Of a DNA stretch of 64,000 nt, positions 3,808-53,313 are shown piece after piece. The notes beneath the pieces were generated by a model. That model was not told where the DNA came from and made no database searches. It saw nothing but the letters and a program-made list of their open reading frames with translations. The translations under genes and the position numbers were made by a program. This DNA comes from Planctomycetota bacterium (lineage in GTDB: Bacteria; Planctomycetota; UBA8108; SXIK01): assembly GCA_965223265.1 (NCBI GenBank), contig OZ244999.1, positions 5,824,001 to 5,888,000 of the forward strand, written 5' to 3'. Numbering within the stretch: position 1 is the stretch's first letter; every line of letters starts with the position of its first letter.

Positions 3808-3928
3808 CTATGACCATCTCCCGGAACGTACAGCTCTACTCACCGCCCCCGGACCCAACCCACTACCCCACGTCGGATTGAAGACGATCAAGCAGGGAAA
3901 ACTCCCCCGTTGAAAGTCGGACCATAGC
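3808..3928 (+). mobile_element. orphan right end of an IS1111-type element related to the one at 44346-45999
   Basis: CCCCACGTCGGATTGAAGAC..ATCAAG...CTCCCCCGTTGA..AGTCGGACCATAG closely matches ~45840-45999; followed by degenerate hexamer repeat TGTCTCCGCCTCTGACTTCGCCTC; left limit approximate. Confidence 0.75.
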
Positions 3929-42715: not shown

Positions 42716-43984
42716 GGGTATGTTAGCGATCCACGACTTCGACACGATCGAAGGTTCCGCGCCCGAAGACCTCCGGTTCGTACATCGCCTCAACTCTCGC
42801 TGCCGGCGTCAAGAAGAGACCTGGGGTCGTCGCGCGGACGAGGTATTCATGCACGTAGAATCCTTGCGGTAGCGACGTAACAAAAACCTCGGCCCGATCG
42901 TCGTGATGCTTTGACGCGGAGAAACGGAGACGCGTCAGCTCACCAGGTCCCCCCTTCAAGCGGCGAGACCACCGGGGCAAATCGCGACCCGCCTCGAATC
43001 CGGCAGGATAGGGATCGACGAGCGCGACATGACGTCGGCTCCGCGGCGTCATGAGGAATAGTCGCACGCGCACGAGCGCACCAGCCTTGACGCTTGCTCT
43101 GCCATCCGCGAGAAACTCGACATCCGACGGGTCATGGGCACCTTCGTAGCGGCGCGACACTTCGAAGCCGGCTGCAACTGCCGGGACGTCGACGTGTCCG
43201 AGCGCGTACTCGAGACGCAACCAGTAGAAAAGACGCCCCATTCCCTCTTGGGCGATCGTCAGCGACGCGACGTTGCCAGCCCCGGTTGTCAGATAGGAGC
43301 CGGGGACGTTCAACATCTGCGCGGGCGCCTGTCGCCCCTCGAAGACTCGCTCACCGAGAAACTTCTCGCCCAGCCAAGTACGCGCAACAAAACGCGGTGA
43401 CTCACGCTCAACCGCCGCGAAGTACCGACCAAGGGCCACGAGAGCGAACGCGTTCTCTTCGGTTGTACGCCACCGGCCCTGCTGCTGTCGACGAACGAGA
43501 CCGTCGGCGAGCTTGCCGACCAGTTCGTCTTCAGGATCACCGCCAGCAAGAACCTCAAGAAAAACCGCATGCGCCCGCAGTGGCGACGGGAGCACGCTTT
43601 CCCACGATGCATCCATCGCAGTCTCGATCTGGGCGCCCCGTGCCGTCTCGTACACTTGATTCTCCAGGTAGCGACGGATCTCAGCAGCCACGTCGCGTGC
43701 GTGTTCGTCGCACTGAAAAACCTCCAGAAGCCAGGCAAGCGCCTCTGCAGGATACCGATCCATCGGCGTCCTCAAAAACCACGTTCGAGCACCGCGACGC
43801 AGTGGAGTAGCCGCCGCAGAAGTAACGCCCCGACGAAGATGCTGGACATAGAAAGCGTACGATCGGATCAGCAACACTTCGGCCGAAAGGGACGATACGT
43901 CGTCAGTAGGCCGAAGGGTTGTGGGCGCGACGGTGTGTGTGTCCGACGGTGTTTGTGAGGCTGGGGTCGGTTGCGCTCCCGCCT

Positions 43985-44150
43985 CGGTTTGCGTGGGCGT
44001 TTGCGTGGGCGTTTGCGTGGGCGTTTGCGTGGGCGTGGGCGTGGGCGTGGGCGCGTGCGTGGGCGCGTGCGTGGGCACGTGCGACTGCGATTGCGTGGGC
44101 GATTGCGTGGGCGATTGCGTGGGCGATTGCGATTGCGTGGGCGTGGGCGT
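43985..44150. repeat. coding 6/12-bp tandem repeats (TGCGTGGGCGTT, GGCGTG, GATTGCGTGGGC) encoding a Pro/Thr/Gln linker in A2M
   Basis: direct reading; translates to TPTPTQSQSPTQ...TPTQTPTQ on the minus strand. Confidence 0.9.
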
Positions 44151-44172
44151 ATTCGTAACGCTATCCGCGTGC

Positions 44173-44345
44173 GCCTCTGCCTCTGTCTCTGTCTCTGCCT
44201 CTGTCTCTGCCTCTGTCTCTGTCTCTGTCTCTGTCTCTGTCTCTGTCTCTGTCTCTGTCTCTGTCTCCGTCTCTGTCTCTGTCTCTGTCTCCGTCTCTGT
44301 CTCTGTCTCTGCCTCTGTCTCTGTCTCTGTCTCTGTCTCTGCCTC
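44173..44345. repeat. (GTCTCT/GCCTCT/GTCTCC)n hexamer microsatellite, block 1 (encodes ET/EA)
   Basis: about 29 hexamers ending exactly at the IS left end. Confidence 0.95.
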
Positions 44346-44396
44346 AGAAACTATGGGCCGTCCTCGTGTACCATAGTCTTTTTTAGGAGTGAAGAG

Positions 44397-45524
44397 ATGG
44401 CAACAAGAACGACCCAGGGACAGCTTACCGACATGAGCGAAGTTCTTCACGTGGCAATTGACGTTGGCAACACAACGTGGAAGCTCGTCAGCGGTGTTGC
44501 GGGGAGCCGGCCGCGCTGCAGGACGGTCGAGGCGGGAAACCTTGCGGAGTTTCAGGAAGAGCTCTCGAAAGCCAAGGCGCGCTTGCGCCTTTCGCCGCAA
44601 GCTGAGGTGGTGAGCTGCTACGAAGCTGGCCGCGATGGATTCTGGCTGCACCGTTGGCTCGTAGACAGTGGGATCCACAACGCCGTCATTGACCCGGCTA
44701 GCTGCGAGGTCGATCAGCGCGCCAAGCGTCAAAAGACCGATCGCCTCGACGGAGAGAAGATGCTCGATCTTTTGATCCGTCACCACGGCTCGTCGCGCAG
44801 CCCACTGCGCGTTGTCAACGTGCCGAGCGTGCAGATCGAGGACGAGCGCCGCCTGCCAAGAGAGCGTCAGCGCCTTGTCAAGGATCGCACTCGGCACATC
44901 AATCGCCTCAAGGACATGTTGATCAAGTTCGGCATCCGCGCCCGCCTCAAGAAGCTGCCTGAAATCATCGACACGTTACGCGGCCCCGATGGATCTGCGA
45001 TCCCCCCGCATGCCAAGGCAGGCATGCTACGCGAGCACGCTCGGCTGCAGCTTGTCGAAGAGCAAATCGCTGAGATTGAGGCCGAGACTCTCGAAACGCT
45101 CACCAACTCGCCGGAGGCCTGCAAGAAAGTCGGCAAGCTCAACAGCCTGCGCGGCATCGGCATGTACACTGCCGCAACGCTCTACTACGAGTTCTTCTGG
45201 CGTAAGTTCAACAATCGCCGTGAAATCGGAGCCCTGGCAGGAATGGTGAGCGTTCCCTGGCGCAGTGACAACATCAAACGCGAGCAAGGAATCAGCAAGG
45301 CTGGCAACGGGCGTGTACGCACACTCATGGTTCAGGCTGCCTGGAACTGGCTGCGCTTTCAGCCACAGAGCCAGCTATCTCAATGGTTCTGCCAGCGCTA
45401 TGGGCCAGGCACCAAGCGCTCGCGCAAGGCGGGAATCGTCGCCTTAGCCAGAAAGCTGCTCATTTCGCTCTGGCGATTCCTCAGCACTGACGTACCACCT
45501 CCGTTGGCACGGCTCAGTTCCTAA
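44397..45524 (+). CDS. IS110-family DEDD recombinase/transposase (375 aa)
   Basis: AGGAG RBS; VAIDVG, CYEAG, KTDRLD, LRGIG, WRSD..EQGISKAGNGRVR, IVALARKL. Confidence 0.95.
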   Translation: MATRTTQGQLTDMSEVLHVAIDVGNTTWKLVSGVAGSRPRCRTVEAGNLAEFQEELSKAKARLRLSPQAEVVSCYEAGRDGFWLHRWLVDSGIHNAVIDPASCEVDQRAKRQKTDRLDGEKMLDLLIRHHGSSRSPLRVVNVPSVQIEDERRLPRERQRLVKDRTRHINRLKDMLIKFGIRARLKKLPEIIDTLRGPDGSAIPPHAKAGMLREHARLQLVEEQIAEIEAETLETLTNSPEACKKVGKLNSLRGIGMYTAATLYYEFFWRKFNNRREIGALAGMVSVPWRSDNIKREQGISKAGNGRVRTLMVQAAWNWLRFQPQSQLSQWFCQRYGPGTKRSRKAGIVALARKLLISLWRFLSTDVPPPLARLSS

Positions 45525-45999
45525 TTCGATGACCAGCAACAGGCTCAACACACCAACCCAACTCAAACGGAGGGACCTGCAGGGCTGACTCGGATTCTTG
45601 GCCGACTGTAGGACGCGTTCGAGCAGAGGCTGGGCTGGCTTTCCAAGCCGCCGTGCTTCTCAGAAGGAACCGTCCTTGTCGGTTCGCCTGCCGCGATGCG
45701 AACGCAGTATCAGGTGATCCGCCAGAGAGCGGACACGCATAGGAGTTGGCCGCGAGGCGCTTTGCCGCCCCGGCGCTCAGAGCGAACCGAACACTTGGCT
45801 TCTTTACCGCCAGCCCAAAGACAACACAGCACTACTACGAAAATGATCTCTCCCGCGTGCGGTACCTTCCGGGCTGCACAGAGCCCGGGGGCGCTCTACC
45901 CGCCGCCCCCCGGACCCCCAGGCAACCCAACTGCCCCACGTCGGATTGAAGACAATCAAGAAAAGAAAGCTCCCCCGTTGACAACAGTCGGACCATAGG
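45525..45999 (+). ncRNA. putative bridge/seekRNA-encoding 3' non-coding region of element A
   Basis: about 475 nt with hairpins; GCAGAGGC (45623-45630) is the reverse complement of the target GCCTC^TGC; CATAGGAG (45738-45745) equals the predicted circle junction; RNA limits unknown. Confidence 0.6.
45978..45983 (+). promoter_or_regulatory. outward-facing -35 (TTGACA) at the right end of element A, forming a promoter in the circular intermediate
   Basis: predicted junction gives TTGACA-17 nt-GAAACT upstream of the transposase; this layout is typical of IS1111-type elements. Confidence 0.55.
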
Positions 46000-46052
46000 T
46001 GCCTCTGCCTCTGTCTCTGCCTCTGCCTCTGTCTCTGCCTCTGTCTCTGCCT
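46000..46052. repeat. hexamer microsatellite, block 2, between the two IS elements
   Basis: TGCCTCTGCCTCTGTCTCTGCC... 53 nt. Confidence 0.95.
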
Positions 46053-46554
46053 TCCATGAGAAGGCCAAAAAGTCAAGAGAGGCGAACGTGGTCGCCGCCC
46101 GAGCGCAGCGAGGTCAATCGTTCTCTGCGCCGAGCGTAGCGAAGGTCAGTTGTAGGGTGGGCGGTCTACGCGGCAGGGAGGGGCCCGCGAGCGGCAATGA
46201 GTCCGCACGCGAAGCGTCTCGTTTGGCGGCCAGGCAGCAAATGCCCTTGCTGCCTGGCCAAGACCGTTTTGGTGCGCTGAGGTTTCCTGAGATTCTCGAA
46301 AGAGTCTATCGCGCGGTTGAAGCCAGCCTTCCATACGCACTTTGGGTGAGGAGTCTGTCCTGGAGTCCTCTGTGCAAGTTGGGGTCCGAACCGTCGTGGT
46401 GCTGCACACTCTGTCGCGAACTCCTGGTATGATCGAAGGAAATTTGGACGCCCTCGATCGGTTCAGTGCAGAGGTCGCAGTCACCAAGACGAGACTTTTC
46501 ACGCGGGTAGATCCTTCAGAGGCTTTTCAGTCGCCTCGTAATGACACAGGCGGC
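46053..46554 (-). ncRNA. putative bridge/seekRNA-encoding 3' non-coding region of element B
   Basis: about 500 nt; minus-strand GACAGAG (46415-46409) and ACAGAGG match the target; ATGGAAG (46334-46328) matches the circle junction; 13-bp hairpin at 46228-46259. Confidence 0.55.
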
Positions 46555-47631
46555 TCAGGCCGAGCGACGCGTCGAGCGCGAGGCGTTGTAGAGTGGATCG
46601 TAGCGCTCGCCGCTGGCCCAGAGGTGATGCATCAGCACGGCGAGCTTTCGTGCCACGGCGACCGTGGCTTGCTTTTTGCCCCTGGCAGCGCCGCGCTGTC
46701 CCAGCCGCTCACCGAAGCGCCTTAGATCGCAGTCCTCCCCGAACGGCCCCAAGATATAATGCGCGCTGCCGACAAGCAGTCGGCGTAGGTAGCCGTTGCC
46801 ATACTTCGAAATACGAAGCTGTGGAGTCCTCGACGAAGAGTCGTGCTGCTTCGGGACGAGTCCGAGATAGGCCCCGACCTTGCGGCTCTTGGAGAAACGC
46901 TCCGGGCTCTCCAGGCTCAAGACAAACGCCAGTGCCGTCAGTGGCCCTACGCCGTTGATCTCTTGAAGGCGCTTGGTCTCTGGGTACTTCTCTGAGAGCG
47001 CCTTGATCTCTCTGTCGTAGCTGCGCACCGTGGCGCTAAGCTGTCCGATCTGCTCGAGCATCGGTAGCACCGCCGCCTCGAGCTCCTCGGGAATATCCTC
47101 CCTGACTTTGTAGTGGAAGGCGGCGCTTGAGCAGCTCTTGAGGCGATACCCGCTCGACTTGACGAGACCTCGCACGCTGTTGATCAGTGTCGTGCGAGTG
47201 CGCACTACTGCGTCACGGGCACGGATGACTGCCAGGTCGTTTTGGGCTGAGAGCTGGCGGTGACGAACCGGTCGCAACAGGCGCGGGCTGCCCCAGCCCA
47301 GCGTCGCCAGGGTGACGGCGTCGAGCTCGTCGTTCTTGCGACCGTTGGCGGCAAGAGCACGCCCTGCGCAGACAGGATTGGCAACGATCACCTCGAAGCC
47401 GAGCTCTTCGAGCACCGCACTGACCCACGGCGAGTGCGTGCCCGCCTCGCAGACCACGCGCGAGCCTCGCGGGAACTCATCAAAGCGCCTAGCGAGCGCC
47501 GAGCGTGTCGTCGCCACGCGCTCGTTGGCGAGGATCTCTCCATCGAGCGTTATCGCCACCAAGTGGCTAAGGCGGTCGCCGAGATCAAGGCCGATAGACA
47601 ACATACGCTGTGTTTGATTACTTTGGGACAT
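46555..47631 (-). CDS. IS110-family DEDD recombinase/transposase (358 aa)
   Basis: AGAAGGAG RBS; IGLDLG, VCEAG, KNDELDA, INGVGP, YLGLVP..HDSS..RISKYGN, VAVARKL. Confidence 0.96.
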   Translation of the reverse strand: MSQSNQTQRMLSIGLDLGDRLSHLVAITLDGEILANERVATTRSALARRFDEFPRGSRVVCEAGTHSPWVSAVLEELGFEVIVANPVCAGRALAANGRKNDELDAVTLATLGWGSPRLLRPVRHRQLSAQNDLAVIRARDAVVRTRTTLINSVRGLVKSSGYRLKSCSSAAFHYKVREDIPEELEAAVLPMLEQIGQLSATVRSYDREIKALSEKYPETKRLQEINGVGPLTALAFVLSLESPERFSKSRKVGAYLGLVPKQHDSSSRTPQLRISKYGNGYLRRLLVGSAHYILGPFGEDCDLRRFGERLGQRGAARGKKQATVAVARKLAVLMHHLWASGERYDPLYNASRSTRRSA

Positions 47632-47723
47632 GGTCAGTCTCTCCTTCTGGGTTCAAAGCCCGGTTAATGTTGCAGATCCTTCTTCGGATACTGCGTGGAG
47701 GGACTGGCCTTCTCATCCCATCT

Positions 47724-47806
47724 CTGTCTCCGTCTCTGTCTCCGTCTCTGTCTCCGTCTCTGTCTCTGTCTCTGCCTCTGTCTCTGTCTTCGTCTCCGTC
47801 TCCGTC
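47724..47806. repeat. hexamer microsatellite, block 3
   Basis: CTGTCTCCGTCTCTGTCTCC... encoding TETETKTETEAETE in A2M. Confidence 0.95.
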
Positions 47807-50800
47807 CCCTCCAACTCAAAACCCCGCTCCGCGAACTCCTCCCATCGATCGAGGACACCGGCATTCACGGACAAGCCGGCACGTTCGGCGCGCACGAGAG
47901 CGTGGGCGACGTGACAACTGAGATACGGATCCACCTCGCCGCCTTGCCAGTACGGCCAGCCTCCGCCGCGCTGCAATCTTTCGAGTCGAAGGATATCGTC
48001 TTCGATGCGACTGCGAAGATGCTCCGCGCTCGGGAGTCCCATGAGCTCGAACGCCGCAGGAAACTCCAAAAACGCGGTCATGCCGAGCAGTCGCGATGCG
48101 ATCTGTTCGCCACAGTCATATGGATACTCGCCGAGGTAGCGCAGCGACTCAGCCAGTGTCTCTAGTCGCGTCGCCGTCAAGCGCACACTAAGGCCGCCGC
48201 GGTTCGCAAGCGCTGCGTTTGGTCGTGCGAGCGCCTCGCGCACCACGGCTGCTTGATCACCCATCGCCTCCAACTCTCCAGTGGCGACGACGGTCTCGAC
48301 GGGCGTGGGTTCGTGCACGGGGAACGACAATTCCGCTGCGTCCGAGAACTCTGCTGCAGTCGCCGCAGCTTGGACGATCGCCCTGCCGCCCTCCATGGCA
48401 AGCGCCGGAAACCGCACCTCGCGGCGGTCACGTGCGGCAACAGCGACTCGACTGCCGATCAAGTCTGGCAGGCTTTCGCCGTCGTCAGGCTTGGCGCGCC
48501 ATGAAATGCCGCGTGCCCGCATTGCCAAGTCGACGTTCAGTGTTTCGTCGGTGGCGTTCTGCAGGACGACGGTCATGTCGAACCGATCGCCGCGCCGCAC
48601 GAATCGCGGTGGCGATGGCCGCACAGCCAGCGGCAAGGTCGCTGTGACAACGGCAGAACCACTGCCGAATCGCTTCGTCGTGGCAGCGACCGCAGTGATT
48701 CGATAGCGGGTCAGAGTCCCTGGCAACGTCAAGGTCACGACAGCCTTGCCGTTTGCATCCGTCTGCACTGCAGGTGCGAAGAGTGCTGTCGCACGAAAGT
48801 CGCGCCGCAGTGCGATCGGCACGTCGCCCCCACTGGAGAGCGACGTCAAGACGGCACGCGCACCGGGAACGGCGTTAGGGTCTTCGGAGTCGAGCGCCAA
48901 GTTCGGAGGGCGGAAAATTCGTGATTCGCGGACGAGCTCGGACGCTTCTTTTGATGACGGCTCGAGGAACGACGCCATGCTCCAATGGCCGCGCACTTTC
49001 GTGTACGGGTAAGGATGGAACGTATCCACGAGGTCCGGTGCCTCGTAGTGTGCCAAGGCATGTATGGAATCATCGACGACGAGCACGCACACCTCCGCGT
49101 CGGAGACAGGACGCTCTCGGTGGTCTCGGACGGTGACATCGATCGTGGTCGATGCACCGGGAGCGAGCGCAGGATCATGCGGTGCGACATCGACGTGTAG
49201 ACGTCGCGATGCAAGCGAAACGTTCAGCGTCACAGTCGCGACGAGTGATGTCGGCCTGGTGGGTGCGGTCGCATCTTGAAGCTGCCTCGCATCGCGCGGC
49301 AGTGTCGCCAGTACGTCAACGTGCAGAAAAAGTTGAGGCAAGTGCTCTTCGCCGATCAAAAACTCGAGCGTGTGATTCGCGCCGTCCATGTCGAAACGCT
49401 GTGTCGACAGAAGGCCACTTCGGATCAAGGTCGCGACGCCCGACGCTGGAGAATAGGGCGACTTCACCAGCACACGCGCGATGTCACCTGGCTCATAGAC
49501 CTGTCGGTCAGGGACGAGCTCGAGTCGTTCAAGACGTGGCGTGCGCGGAGCATGGCGCTCGATTCCAGAGACCCAGAGAGTGCGCTCGGCAACAGCCCTG
49601 CGGCCGTCCGGATCGACGGTCTCGGCGCGGACGACGTGGGTTCCGGCGCGCTGAGGAATGAAATCGACGCTGACCGGTTGGTCGGCGGAGATGACCCGTG
49701 TTGCTTGCTGGTCCGACTCCACCCGTAGGCGGCCATTCGGCCCATCAACCCATTCGGTCCGCACCATCTCGAACGCGATCGGCACACCGGACTTCGTCTT
49801 CCCCGCCGGATCGACAACGACGGCCTCGAGCGGCACCGACGCGCCGGCGGCGACAAACGATTCACTGGTGCGCAGTCCAACCAGCCTAGAGGACGGAAGG
49901 ACGACGAGCTCAGACCAGGTGCGCCTCTCGAATCGGGTCACATCCAAAACTCTTGCCGTCAGGTAGACCGACATAGGCTCCGATGAACGTACGTGCGCAA
50001 AGTCGACGCGCAGTCGATGGATGCCGGTCGCGTCCGTTCGCCCGCTGAGCTCGACCTCATGAACAGTCCCCTCCGAGTGGAACTCCTCATCGAAATCCCC
50101 CCACCAGGGCGACCAGCGGCCAAAGGTGAACGAATCCCATCCTGGGATAGAAACCTGCGCCGGGGACGAGCTCGCCTGCCAGCGGACGAACGCGTTCGCG
50201 AGCGGCCCGGACGACAGATAGTGCGCGGCCAGCGTCACCTCGGCGGACCCGCCGCTAAAATGTGGCCCGGGGTCAGGAATGCAGGATATCTCGAATTCAG
50301 GACGGCGGTACTCTCGCACGATCACGTTTCGCGACGCAACCTCCTCGCCGCGAGCGAACACCTTGACCTTGGGCCATTCGTTACCCGTTGGTAACCGAAA
50401 GGAAAAATCGAAACCACCGAGCGGCGTGAGGGCCGCCGCTCCTTCGCGCGTATGGCTCTCGCCGGCGATCACGTAGCGCACCTCGTGGATGTCTGTCGGA
50501 AGCCCGACGTCACCGCCGCGCCGGTGGTCTACGCGCCGTAGCCATCCCTTGACGTGGACCTCGTCTCCGGGGCGATAGACTCCGCGATCGAGGAGAAGCT
50601 CGCAGCGGTCAGATCGATGCGGCACCTCGTCGAAGCGCCAGGCGGAACGGCCGCCGTAGTCGTAGGGATCCAAGAACGCCGAGTCGTCTCGCAAGCGTGC
50701 GACCAGAAGAGGCGGTTCGCCGATCATGCCAGCGAGGTCGAGCGTCGCGAAGTCGCCGTCGGTCACACCAGCTGCCGACGTCGGCGGGTAGAAGGAAACC

Positions 50801-53313
50801 GCTGCGCCATCGACGTTCGTCCGATCGCTTAGTCGCGTCACCCATGCAGTCAACTTCGATGGATCCCAAAGCGCTAGCAGTTGTAGCTGGGTGCGTTCGA
50901 GCCAAATGGCCCGAGGCCGAGTGTCGTAAGCTCGCTCAAACTGCGGGGCGTTGACACGAACAACCGCGACTGCATGGCCAACCCCGCCCGGAAATGCACG
51001 CGTCAAGTTCAGCCGCGTCTCAACGAGCTCATTGACATGCCCGCGCACTGAGATGCGCTCACTGAAGAGGTGAACACCGGGAACCTGTAGTGCGCGATCA
51101 CGCTGCAATTCCTCGTCGCGATCGACTTCCTCGAGCCACTCACGGTAGCGAAGAAATCGCCCCCAATCCGCAACTTCCACGCGGTACACGGAGAGGTCGA
51201 TCGATTCGAGGTTGATCGCATAGCAAGAGAGCCCCGGCGGCCTGTCGGGGTCGAGGACGACTTTCTTTTCCGAACCCACGAAGTGGAGCCCTGGTCGCTC
51301 GCGCGTTTCGTCGAAGTGCAGTGTCACGTCGCCGCCGAGGGTCCGCCCCTGATGGTCACGGAGGCTGCTGGGAAGGGTCACTTGAAACGCTGTGGCGTCG
51401 GTGTCGTCGATGACGATCGTGAGGCTCTGACGTTCTACCTCGATGCGACTCGAGGTCACAGCCGGGCAGATTCCAATCCTTGAATGATCGCCAAGGGATG
51501 ATGGATCGAGCGGTGCTGTGAACGAGATTCCAAGCTCGACTCGATCGAAGCCGTCGGCGCCGTGGTACTCGACCGCGAAATCGTCACGTTTCTTCTCGCG
51601 GTACACCTCGAAGCGAAGACGCTCAACGCGATCGCTGACCTGCTCGCCGACGAGGGAACGAACTCCAGGTTTGAGCTCGACGTCGACGTGATCCGAAAGC
51701 AACTCGGGGACTCGGTAAGCAACCCAGTTCCCAGGCCGCACAGCCCTCCGAACCGACCCCCTTTGGGGATTCAACGGTTGCTCCCAGTCGTTGCTGTCCG
51801 ACTGAAGCTCTCGCTGCTTCAAAGAGTAGTGTTCCTCGACGTCTTCCCACGTCAAACGCTCTACTGCGACCCGCTTCCCCTCGCAGCTCACAACCAGTCG
51901 CTCCTGCACCGAAGCTACATCGATCGGCTGGTTGAAGACGAGAACGATGGGTGCATTGCTGTCGACGCGCCAGTCGGATGGATGAAAACGTACGAGCCGG
52001 GGCGGGGCTGTTGAAAACTCGAAGACTGCCGTCTCTTCGAGCAGGGCTCCCGAAAGTGACGTGAGGGAGCGAGGCACTTCGACGCGATAGCGCGTCGCCA
52101 TCGGAAAAAACCGTTCCTGCGGTGTAGTGCCAGGGACGAAAAGAAGTGTCCGTGTGTCCAACCACCTCCAGTTTCCTACCGCATGCGGCTTCAGCTGCAG
52201 CGACGGCGCGGAAGAAGGAACGAGCTGCATTCCAAGCGGCACCATCGGCTGCGAGAAGGTGACCCGGATATGATCCGCGCGTTCGACACCCCCCTGCGGG
52301 GAGAAACGTACGATGCGAAGAGGCTCGCGTGCGTCTGCGTTTCCAGACACGTCCTCGGCGCCGCGGCGAGTCGTGTTCGACGCCAGACCGACGCGGCGAG
52401 ACGGCGGCGTTGTCGAAGGTGAGGCGGGAAGAGGTCGCTGCTCGGTCGGTAGCTGCAGCAGCGCGTCCTGCTTCTTCTCTGGAGCCTTCAGATGCGGCAG
52501 GCGGTAGAAGATGCTCGCAGCCTTGGAAGAGGCGAGCGGTTCGGGAGTGCATGGCGCGGCGCGGTCTCGATGCAACGAGCCGACAGTGGGAGGCCTCGCA
52601 GGCGCCGACGCCGACTCGGAGAGTCGAAACGGCGGTTCATCCGCATCGCTCTCAATGGGCCAACCGAACGCCGCTTCGAACGTCGCTCCGAGCGTCACCG
52701 CCACCAGAGAGGAGAGAAACCAGGGAAAGGATGCGCGTCGGCTGCAGTCTGGCCGGAGCCCCCGTCGAAGTCGCCGTCGAGGTCGCCGAGATCGCCGTCG
52801 CATCGCGCCCTCCTGGAACTTCTCCATCCCTGAAGCTTTCGACTCAATGCTTCAGTGTAACTGCGCACGGTCACGGAACTGTCATGAAAAGAAAAACGCT
52901 GCCTCTTGGCTTCTTGAGCGGGGAGAGAAGTCGAGCACTGCGCGAGGACGACGCAAATTCGGACGGCACTCACGGCGAGCTTTCGAGAGCCAAAGGCCGA
53001 CACCATCTCCGGTTCCGCTTCGGTCTCTTTCTCGAACTCCGAGTTCGTGTCGGTTCTATGTCCGTAATCCGACTCCGTCCCCCGATACCTACCCCAGAAT
53101 GGCAAGTAAGAACGCCGAAGAGCGCACTACGGAGACCCAAAACTGCTGGTGCCCCCGTTCGAAGAGTGAAAACGACTGATGTCTACTCTACATTTCGCAG
53201 GCTGGGAGTTTATCTCGCAGTCGCGCAGGTCGTTCTGCCGTTCCGCGAGTGCCACACAACTCTTTATATGTCGCCTTCTGTCACAGGCCGGCATCGGAAG
53301 CTCAAAAGCGATA

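Follow-up and report, generated by a model that had tools for sequence, protein, structure and literature searches.

A probable bridge/seekRNA in an IS110-family insertion sequence of a planctomycetote, with guide loops matching a six-base repeat and the predicted joint of the element's ends

Results

Element A lies within a six-base repeat

The window analysed here is a stretch of 64,000 nt from a Planctomycetota bacterium (UBA8108; SXIK01), covering positions 5,824,001-5,888,000 (forward strand) of contig OZ244999.1 in assembly GCA_965223265.1, a genome that consists of one 9.18-Mb contig with 60.8% G+C. Between positions 44346 and 45999 (plus strand), the window holds an IS110-family insertion sequence of 1654 bp, hereafter Element A, whose ends are common to eight full genomic copies with ~100% identity. 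Period-6 repeat stretches are found on both sides: on the left, a (GYCTCT)n microsatellite (44175-44345; TRF period 6, 28.5 copies) whose last bases at the insertion point are ...GCCTC, and on the right, a microsatellite at 46000-46052. The left junction reads ...GCCTC/AGAAACTATGG... and the right junction ...GGACCATAGG/TGCCTCTGCC. The subterminal inverted repeats CTATGGGCCGTC (44351-44362) and GTCGGACCATAG (45987-45998), both given on the plus strand as read from the sequence, pair at 10 of 12 positions. In the wider family, the ends were defined from multi-copy relatives and conserved words, giving a left end AG-AT-NNN-TATG and a right end TTGACA-N(8-22)-CATAGA followed by AG. The family-conserved TTGACA, which stands 8-22 nt ahead of the CATAG end, is located at 45978-45983 (plus strand) in the window. 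It might serve as the -35 box of a promoter that the circle joint completes, an idea reportedly raised for ISEc11 under the name Pjunc; the distance from TTGACA to the TATG-type -10 box in the left end is 22-23 nt, more than a standard promoter allows.

Genome-wide, all eight copies are inserted in one orientation at CYGYCTC^TGYCTCTGCC, i.e., within the (GYCTCT)n repeat, with GCCTC (seven copies) or GTCTC (one copy) as left flank and TGCCTC (seven copies) or TGTCTC (one copy) as right flank. Element A is therefore aimed at a simple repeat, occupying an equal position and orientation in 8/8 cases, in a genome that holds 53 arrays with at least four GYCTCY units and 60 sites of CTCTGCCTCTGC. The identity of the eight copies argues for recent activity without proving it, and because they are identical, no covariation is available within this genome. 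Five of them are arranged in tandem between genome positions 487257 and 496009, with 36-72 bp of repeat between neighbours. Note that an 88-bp segment (45842-45929, plus strand) is tandemly duplicated with an extra G in three of the eight copies, that the joint of this duplication is also present in contigs of three sequencing runs, and that normal and duplicated copies alternate along the five-copy series, which could reflect repeated insertion or unequal crossing-over. Neither the right-end-to-left-end joint nor the empty site was found in contigs of four runs from one sample, and the circle joint is absent from the genome assembly.

The neighbourhood of Element A

Element A directly adjoins a second IS110-family element, Element B (46054-47721, minus strand), which is inserted in the same repeat in opposite orientation and has four genomic copies. 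Its transposase (46558-47631, 358 aa) is 27% identical to that of Element A, its left end reads ATGGGATGAGAAGGCC... and its right end ...GGCCTTCTCATGG, with flanks ..CGGAG and AAGGCAGAGAC. The RNA model described below gave no match to Element B. Around the two elements, a bacterial alpha-2-macroglobulin gene lies on the minus strand in two parts (42726-43958 and 47716-52827), with an upstream part of 1704 aa that contains A2M, bait-region and MG domains and a downstream part with bMG10. The repeats at 43960-44345 and 47721-47806 are coding on the minus strand and read as (Thr-Glu)/(Ala-Glu), then TP/TQ repeats, so that Elements A and B split this gene inside its (Thr-Glu)n repeat. In addition, two solo right-end-like fragments were observed, one in the window (3833-3927) and one elsewhere in the genome (6414623-6414687), with 81% and 94% identity to the last 65-106 bp of Element A. 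Both end in ...GTCGGACCATAG(G), with CTGTCTCCGCCTCTG next after the window fragment, and they are probably relics of old insertions.

Transposase and family assignment

The transposase of Element A (44433-45524, plus strand, 363 aa) is a DEDD protein with PF01548 (E 4.1e-10) and PF02371 (E 3.4e-14), both exceeding the curated cut-offs. Residues E64, D103, D106 and S278 occupy columns that are invariant in a 21-sequence alignment of the family, and D10 stands at a position where the relatives have E. The N-terminal RuvC-like DEDD domain and the C-terminal Tnp domain with the catalytic residues and the serine, as well as the site-specific insertion in one orientation and the very ends that lack terminal inverted repeats in 8/8 copies, place Element A in the IS110 family.

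Its position relative to the IS1111 group is less simple. The non-coding region is longer downstream (475 nt) than upstream (87 nt) of the transposase gene and the subterminal inverted repeats are within the 7-17 bp given for IS1111 (PMC11208160, available part), both as in IS1111 elements. The protein departs from IS1111 proper, for which the available part of PMC11187229 gives a transposase of 330-350 aa with a GL-P----S(t)G motif. Indeed, the window protein has 363 aa (365-392 aa in relatives) and reads GMVSVPWRSD, with S278-D279 where the family consensus has S-G, whereas this consensus (GLVPxPxxSG) fits the motif. IS1111 features are thus only partly present, protein length and motif being the exceptions.

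The lineage is large: 7996 of 8000 scored candidate proteins matched the Element A transposase at E <= 1e-30, and the best match among those 8000 (P0001, 71% identical) comes from a 1.6-kb contig. No close relative was found in 60 related genomes, and neither the genome scan nor the metagenome scan returned a locus with more than 50% protein identity.

A structured RNA module downstream of the gene that encodes the transposase

In the downstream non-coding region, an earlier note had pointed to two eight-base motifs and read them as the target- and donor-binding loops of a bridge/seekRNA programmed against a simple repeat. Its sequence claims hold: GCAGAGGC (45623-45630) is the reverse complement of the insertion site GCCTC^TGC, and CATAGGAG (45738-45745) equals the predicted right-end/left-end joint CATAGG/AG, which is non-contiguous in the integrated copy. 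The note had also conceded that matches of 8 nt might be due to chance. Among 2000 dinucleotide-preserving shuffles of the non-coding region, a match of at least 8 nt to the 30-nt target arose in 413, a donor word spanning the joint in 129 and both in 34, so the matches are suggestive and modestly beyond chance. Since they are not decisive alone, the weight of the argument comes from relatives.

For this purpose, 80 loci with 43-50% transposase identity were fetched from genome contigs. An nhmmer search seeded with the window non-coding region gave first matches that were weak and confined to positions 78-253, and after three rounds 79/80 loci were matched. RNAalifold on MAFFT alignments recovered the structure only in parts; the structure was instead taken from the fold of a typical member (L100) and tested by covariation. 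An alignment of sixty distinct modules, together with this structure, gave the covariance model R1, of 158 positions. R1 was found beside the transposase in 80/80 genome loci and matched 74 of 80 metagenome loci that had been held out from model building. Its sole match in the window is 45599-45754 on the plus strand (72.4 bits, E 3.5e-20), which ranks 79th of 84 R1 matches, most of them scoring 80-131 bits.

In the R1 alignment, 83.3% of helix cells are paired, compared with 70.6% in shuffled alignments and 36-47% in slid controls, and changes on both sides were observed for 28 of 34 helix pairs; 0/500 shuffles reach the observed values. Moreover, the many G-U pairs in the helices fit the transposase strand. 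In the window, helix P1 joins 45602-06 to 45678-82 and helix P2, which has a bulged C here, joins 45611-20 to 45667-75. Together they close a first internal loop that contains hairpin P3 (45633-45652; helix 2 of the model, with 6/7 pairs changed on both sides). Hairpin P4 (45683-45702; helix 3, read in the sequence as TTCGC...GCGAA) follows, and a second internal loop surrounds hairpin P5 (45714-45736; helix 4, 96.9% of cells paired, 6/8 pairs changed on both sides). All three hairpins are on the plus strand. The earlier description of the motifs as lying among hairpins can now be made precise, as both fall in single strands of internal loops between the helices of this covariation-supported structure. 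A further helix closing the second loop via GAAG was tried and rejected, having no covariation support (380/500 shuffles scored as high).

Other searches of the region gave little. An Rfam scan of 43500-48500 at E <= 1 returned no family, a simple scan of 45350-46060 returned no sigma-70 promoter or terminator, and the single-sequence fold of the entire non-coding region was uninformative (z = -1.17). The 5' strand of P1 also contains a third 8-mer, CCGACTGT (45602-45609), whose reverse complement, ACAGTCGG, occurs in the right end. In three loci (L034:55-208, L078:929-1087 and L095:2683-2835, minus strand), additional RNA modules were seen near the main element, which indicates neighbouring or nested copies in those genomes.

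The first internal loop follows the target flanks

The 5' strand of the first loop, GAGCAGAGGCTG (45621-45632, plus strand), holds GCAGAGGC and is complementary to the top strand of the core and right flank. Its 3' strand, GTGCTTCTCAGAAG (45653-45666, plus strand), reads in the sense of the left flank CTC, the core AG and the element's first AA; within it, CTTCTCAGAA (45657-45666) matches the left flank, the core and the first two nucleotides of the element.

The reverse complement of the 5' strand was compared with the right junction (2 nt of the end and 14 nt of flank), counting matches of at least 7 nt. Such matches were found for 41/66 distinct cognate pairs and for 12/2394 non-cognate pairs, and the held-out test gave 29/47 cognate versus 8/1506 mismatched pairs. 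The covariance model from homologous non-coding regions that the earlier note had proposed as a check thus bears out its target motif strand, which covaries with the flanks. In 38 of the 41 matches, the match begins at the last right-end base or at core position 1 or 2 and runs into the right flank; none of the relatives' matches of this length falls in the left flank. The 8-nt match of the window begins at core position 2, the commonest register (18 pairs). As an example of natural reprogramming, in the near-isogenic loci L091, L069 and L078 the guide AAACGGC[T/C/G]GC goes with the flank GC[A/G/C]GCCGTT.

The 3' strand follows the other side of the target. Read back from the core, it equals the left flank over at least 4 nt in 24/69 cognate pairs versus 5/2396 non-cognate ones, and in 14/50 versus 7/1542 in the held-out test. 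It extends with the first two bases of the element, AGAT in most members, and where the left end begins with AGAA, the 3' strand also reads AGAA (3/3 distinct pairs, the window included, and 7/8 held-out rows).

The repetitive nature of the target makes the window's two target strands mutually complementary: ~6.4 pairs are expected between them, which exceeds 64/69 relatives, and GCAGAGGC is paired in the minimum-energy fold of the free RNA. The G and U that face the Y of the repeat would be able to wobble-pair with C or T, fitting a degenerate repeat. Three other loci (L070, L110 and L111) have rebuilt targets that are runs of a degenerate 7-mer, (GCNNTCA)x4, which places tandem-repeat targets in at least two other branches of the lineage.

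The second internal loop resembles the element's own ends

The 3' strand of the second loop, GCATAGGAG (45737-45745, plus strand), holds CATAGGAG and reads in the sense of the right end CATAGG and core AG. Across the family, this box is GGATAGAAG, nearly invariant and of the same sense as CATAGA-AG, so that most of its likeness to the right end reflects conservation. Covariation is limited to two box positions in a few lineages. In L070, L074 and L181, a CATAGG-AG right end comes with the box GGATAGGAG; the window box GCATAGGAG accompanies CATAGG, and GAATAGACG accompanies CATAGA-CG in L122. The other boxes end in GAAG and accompany CATAGA-AG, with the exceptions of GGATAGAAA (L049), a TATAGA right end (L040) and core variants. 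A quick tree of the transposases groups the window and L070 as sisters (support 95) and puts L074 in another supported clade; as the window and L070 are thereby separated from L074, the box change arose at least twice.

The 5' strand, GCAGTATCAG (45704-45713, plus strand), places GTAT opposite left-end positions 3-6 (AAAC) with one mismatch, located at position 4. Among relatives, an exact 4-mer between this strand and left-end positions 3-6 was found in 27/47 pairs. At left-end position 5, where each of the four bases occurs, Watson-Crick pairing with loop position 5 was seen in 37/47 pairs.

A small lineage with a CG core (L082, L122, L134 and L140) was observed alongside. Its left junction is ..GGTT-CG-AA in all four loci, and the 3' strand of the first loop is GCCGGTTCGATG in L134 and GCCGGTTCGAAG in the other three. 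In L082 and L122 the box ends in ACG; in L134 and L140 the contig stops before reaching it. L122 alone showed the right junction CATAGA-CG, and box, junction and target strand co-vary where all three are seen.

The core specified by the RNA differs from the repeat

AG is common to donor and target and is for this reason taken as the core. The putative guide strands specify it three times, in the reverse complement of the target 5' strand (AGCCTCTGC), in the 3' strand (CTC-AG-AA) and at the end of the box (GG-AG). In all eight copies the left junction reads AG and the right one TG, and TG is what the repeat provides. The genome has a single exact site with an AG core, CTCAGCCTCTGC, versus the 60 sites of CTCTGCCTCTGC. 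The possibility that the empty site instead has AG as core and GT as start (CTCAGGTGCCTC) was considered and rejected (2 sites versus 60 plain-repeat sites).

Of 111 distinct junctions in the family, 107 have AG as right core. A non-cognate right core was seen in L056 (GG), L172 (GG) and L179 (AA), with AG as left core in all three, as in the window. The left core equals the core of the RNA in eight loci read by eye, seven of them without a strict left-end match; a relaxed search for non-AG left ends matched start-codon contexts and was uninformative. For IS621, the available part of the source reports that the first (top) strand is cut just after the CT core, with handshake guides (PMC11208158). 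Products with an unligated second strand and mismatches beside the core are described in PMC13626964. By analogy, first-strand exchange on the CT-reading strand would yield CTC-AG-AAAC on the left and CATAGG-TG-CCTC on the right.

Discussion

Altogether, we consider it likely, with a probability of about 0.88, that 45599-45754 encodes a bridge/seekRNA of ~156 nt, on the transposase strand, belonging to a large IS110-family lineage with a downstream non-coding region. The sequence data support placing both motifs in guide loops, one directed toward the six-base repeat and the other probably toward the joined ends of the element. The earlier reading of target and donor loops programmed against a simple repeat stands insofar as the guide strands track the DNA in relatives, and falls insofar as it had the target strand pairing across the cut. 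It had also counted two guides, and both lie in candidate guide strands; there are four such strands in all, those with CTTCTCAGAA and at 45704-45713 having been missed. In the same way, CATAGGAG does share the sense of the joint, and it is a lineage variant of the family box GGATAGAAG rather than a free 8-mer guide. Its expected covariation with the junction was recovered at two box positions, the remainder being nearly invariant.

The register of the target strand deserves particular attention. The pairing at -5 to +3 around GCCTC^TGC that the earlier note proposed is not the one seen in the family, where the second core base and the right flank (+2 to +9) are read. Within the repeat, both registers are identical in sequence, so the window alone cannot tell them apart, and this identity is what speaks for pairing across the cut. 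Relatives with non-repetitive targets do separate them: 38/41 matches start at the end or core and enter the right flank, 0 lie in the left flank, and that flank is matched by the loop's other strand. Pairing across the cut is accordingly very improbable. As relatives pair from the core into the right flank, the window pairing is placed at 46001-46008 (GCCTCTGC), shifted rightward by one repeat unit relative to the cut-spanning register.

The donor side leaves more room for another explanation, namely that only the first loop is a guide and that the CATAGGAG/GGATAGAAG box is a scaffold or protein contact, with its likeness to the right end due to a shared transposase-binding word. The near invariance of the box across the family fits such a role, as do a resemblance to the right end that breaks off after 7 nt in most members (the box then has G and the right end C) and the imperfect fit of the partner strand to the left end (27/47). 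A scaffold would nevertheless hardly account for the A-to-G change, seen in two clades or more, that the box shares with the right end in L070, L074, L181 and the window, or for the A-to-C change that goes with the CG core in L122, whose 3' target strand also reads CG; in addition, no intramolecular partner of the box covaries. We therefore regard the scaffold explanation as improbable, if the better of the alternatives. It is hardly credible, finally, that the matches are due to chance in a decayed and non-functional relic. Each match is 8 nt long and both arise together in 34/2000 shuffles, the family score of the window copy is low, and it has mismatches to its own left end and to its target core. 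Against this, both motifs are placed exactly within the two loop strands that, in the family, follow flank and right end, the eight copies with ~100% identity all lie at the predicted kind of site, and the catalytic residues are intact. A bridge/seekRNA with guides in both loops remains our preferred reading.

Element A combines features of two known systems, which are compared here as described in the available parts of the respective papers. It shares with the IS1111-type seekRNA elements (ISEc11, ISPa11 and ISKpn4; Siddiquee et al. 2024, PMC11187229) the long downstream non-coding region, the subterminal inverted repeats, a segment complementary to the top strand located 5' of the one complementary to the bottom strand, and two target matches that meet or overlap at the insertion point; natural redirection via changed guide segments is likewise common to those elements and to the relatives of Element A. 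The differences are the longer transposase noted above (363 aa, 365-392 aa in relatives, versus 330-350 aa), a module of ~156 nt with a second, donor-matching loop, whereas RNAs of 82-96 nt with target matches and without a donor guide are described for the IS1111 type, and a coding hexanucleotide repeat as target in place of REP sequences, attC sites and transposon ends. With the IS621 bridge RNA (Durrant et al. 2024, PMC11208160; Hiraizumi et al. 2024, PMC11208158), the module has in common two internal loops, each with a pair of strands that in Element A would read the opposite DNA strands of target or donor, and a dinucleotide core common to donor and target, the AG of Element A being CT, the IS621 core, on the other strand. 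The target-loop strand that ends with the element's first two bases resembles the IS621 handshake guides (PMC11208158), and the catalytic set is DEDD plus Ser in both, the equivalence to D11/E60/D102/D105/S241 of IS621 (PMC11208158) being by position. Unlike IS621, whose RNA is in the left end, Element A has its RNA in the right end with the strand order reversed, long subterminal repeats, and natural sites whose core differs from the one specified by the RNA.

On this basis, a mechanism can be proposed. The RNA would fold with a long P1/P2 stem closing the first internal loop, which carries P3, followed by P4 and by the second loop around P5. In the first loop, the 5' strand GAGCAGAGGCTG would pair with the target's top strand, beginning in the core and continuing into the right flank (G-CCTCTGC), and the 3' strand (..CUUCUC-AG-AA) with the bottom strand of the left flank and core, its last two bases matching the first two bases of the element in a handshake-like manner. 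In the second loop, the 3' strand (CAUAGG-AG) would pair with the bottom strand of the right end and core, and a short part of the 5' strand with left-end positions 3-6. The element would be circularised, with a joint CATAGG-AG-AAAC (predicted as ...GGACCATAGG-AG-AAACTATGG), and the DEDD/Ser transposase together with the RNA would bring this circle to a ...GYCTC-TG-YCTCTGC repeat for recombination. The left junction would then retain the donor core AG and the right junction the target TG, which fits a first-strand exchange just past the core that fixes the final sequence. In this scheme, we infer the transcription of the module, its binding by the transposase, the circle joint and the strand order from the organisation of the element and its relatives.

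A broader proposal, which we offer tentatively and with the odds somewhat against it, is that this natural bridge RNA is tuned to a degenerate coding microsatellite. The wobbling G and U would face the Y of the repeat, and the AG core would be tolerated against TG and the outcome would be fixed (the left junction with the donor core, the right junction with that of the target), revealing the first-exchanged strand as the one that fixes the product. The arrays might then serve as landing pads that renew themselves and gather tandem copies, and that are used independently by the unrelated IS110-family Element B.

Conclusions

No report of IS110 elements or bridge RNAs with microsatellite targets was found in the titles and abstracts of the literature searched. 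The mechanism itself is known, and what is unusual here is its target, a putative natural guide being directed at a simple repeat. The core carried by the target sites is absent from the specification of the RNA and the outcome at the junctions is one-sided, which makes core tolerance and strand order directly testable in this system. More generally, the four putative guide strands, the core and the ends are now mapped for a very large, uncharacterised lineage of probable RNA-guided recombinases, and this map, backed by natural reprogramming in 113 distinct guide-flank pairs, would be useful for the mining of programmable recombinases.
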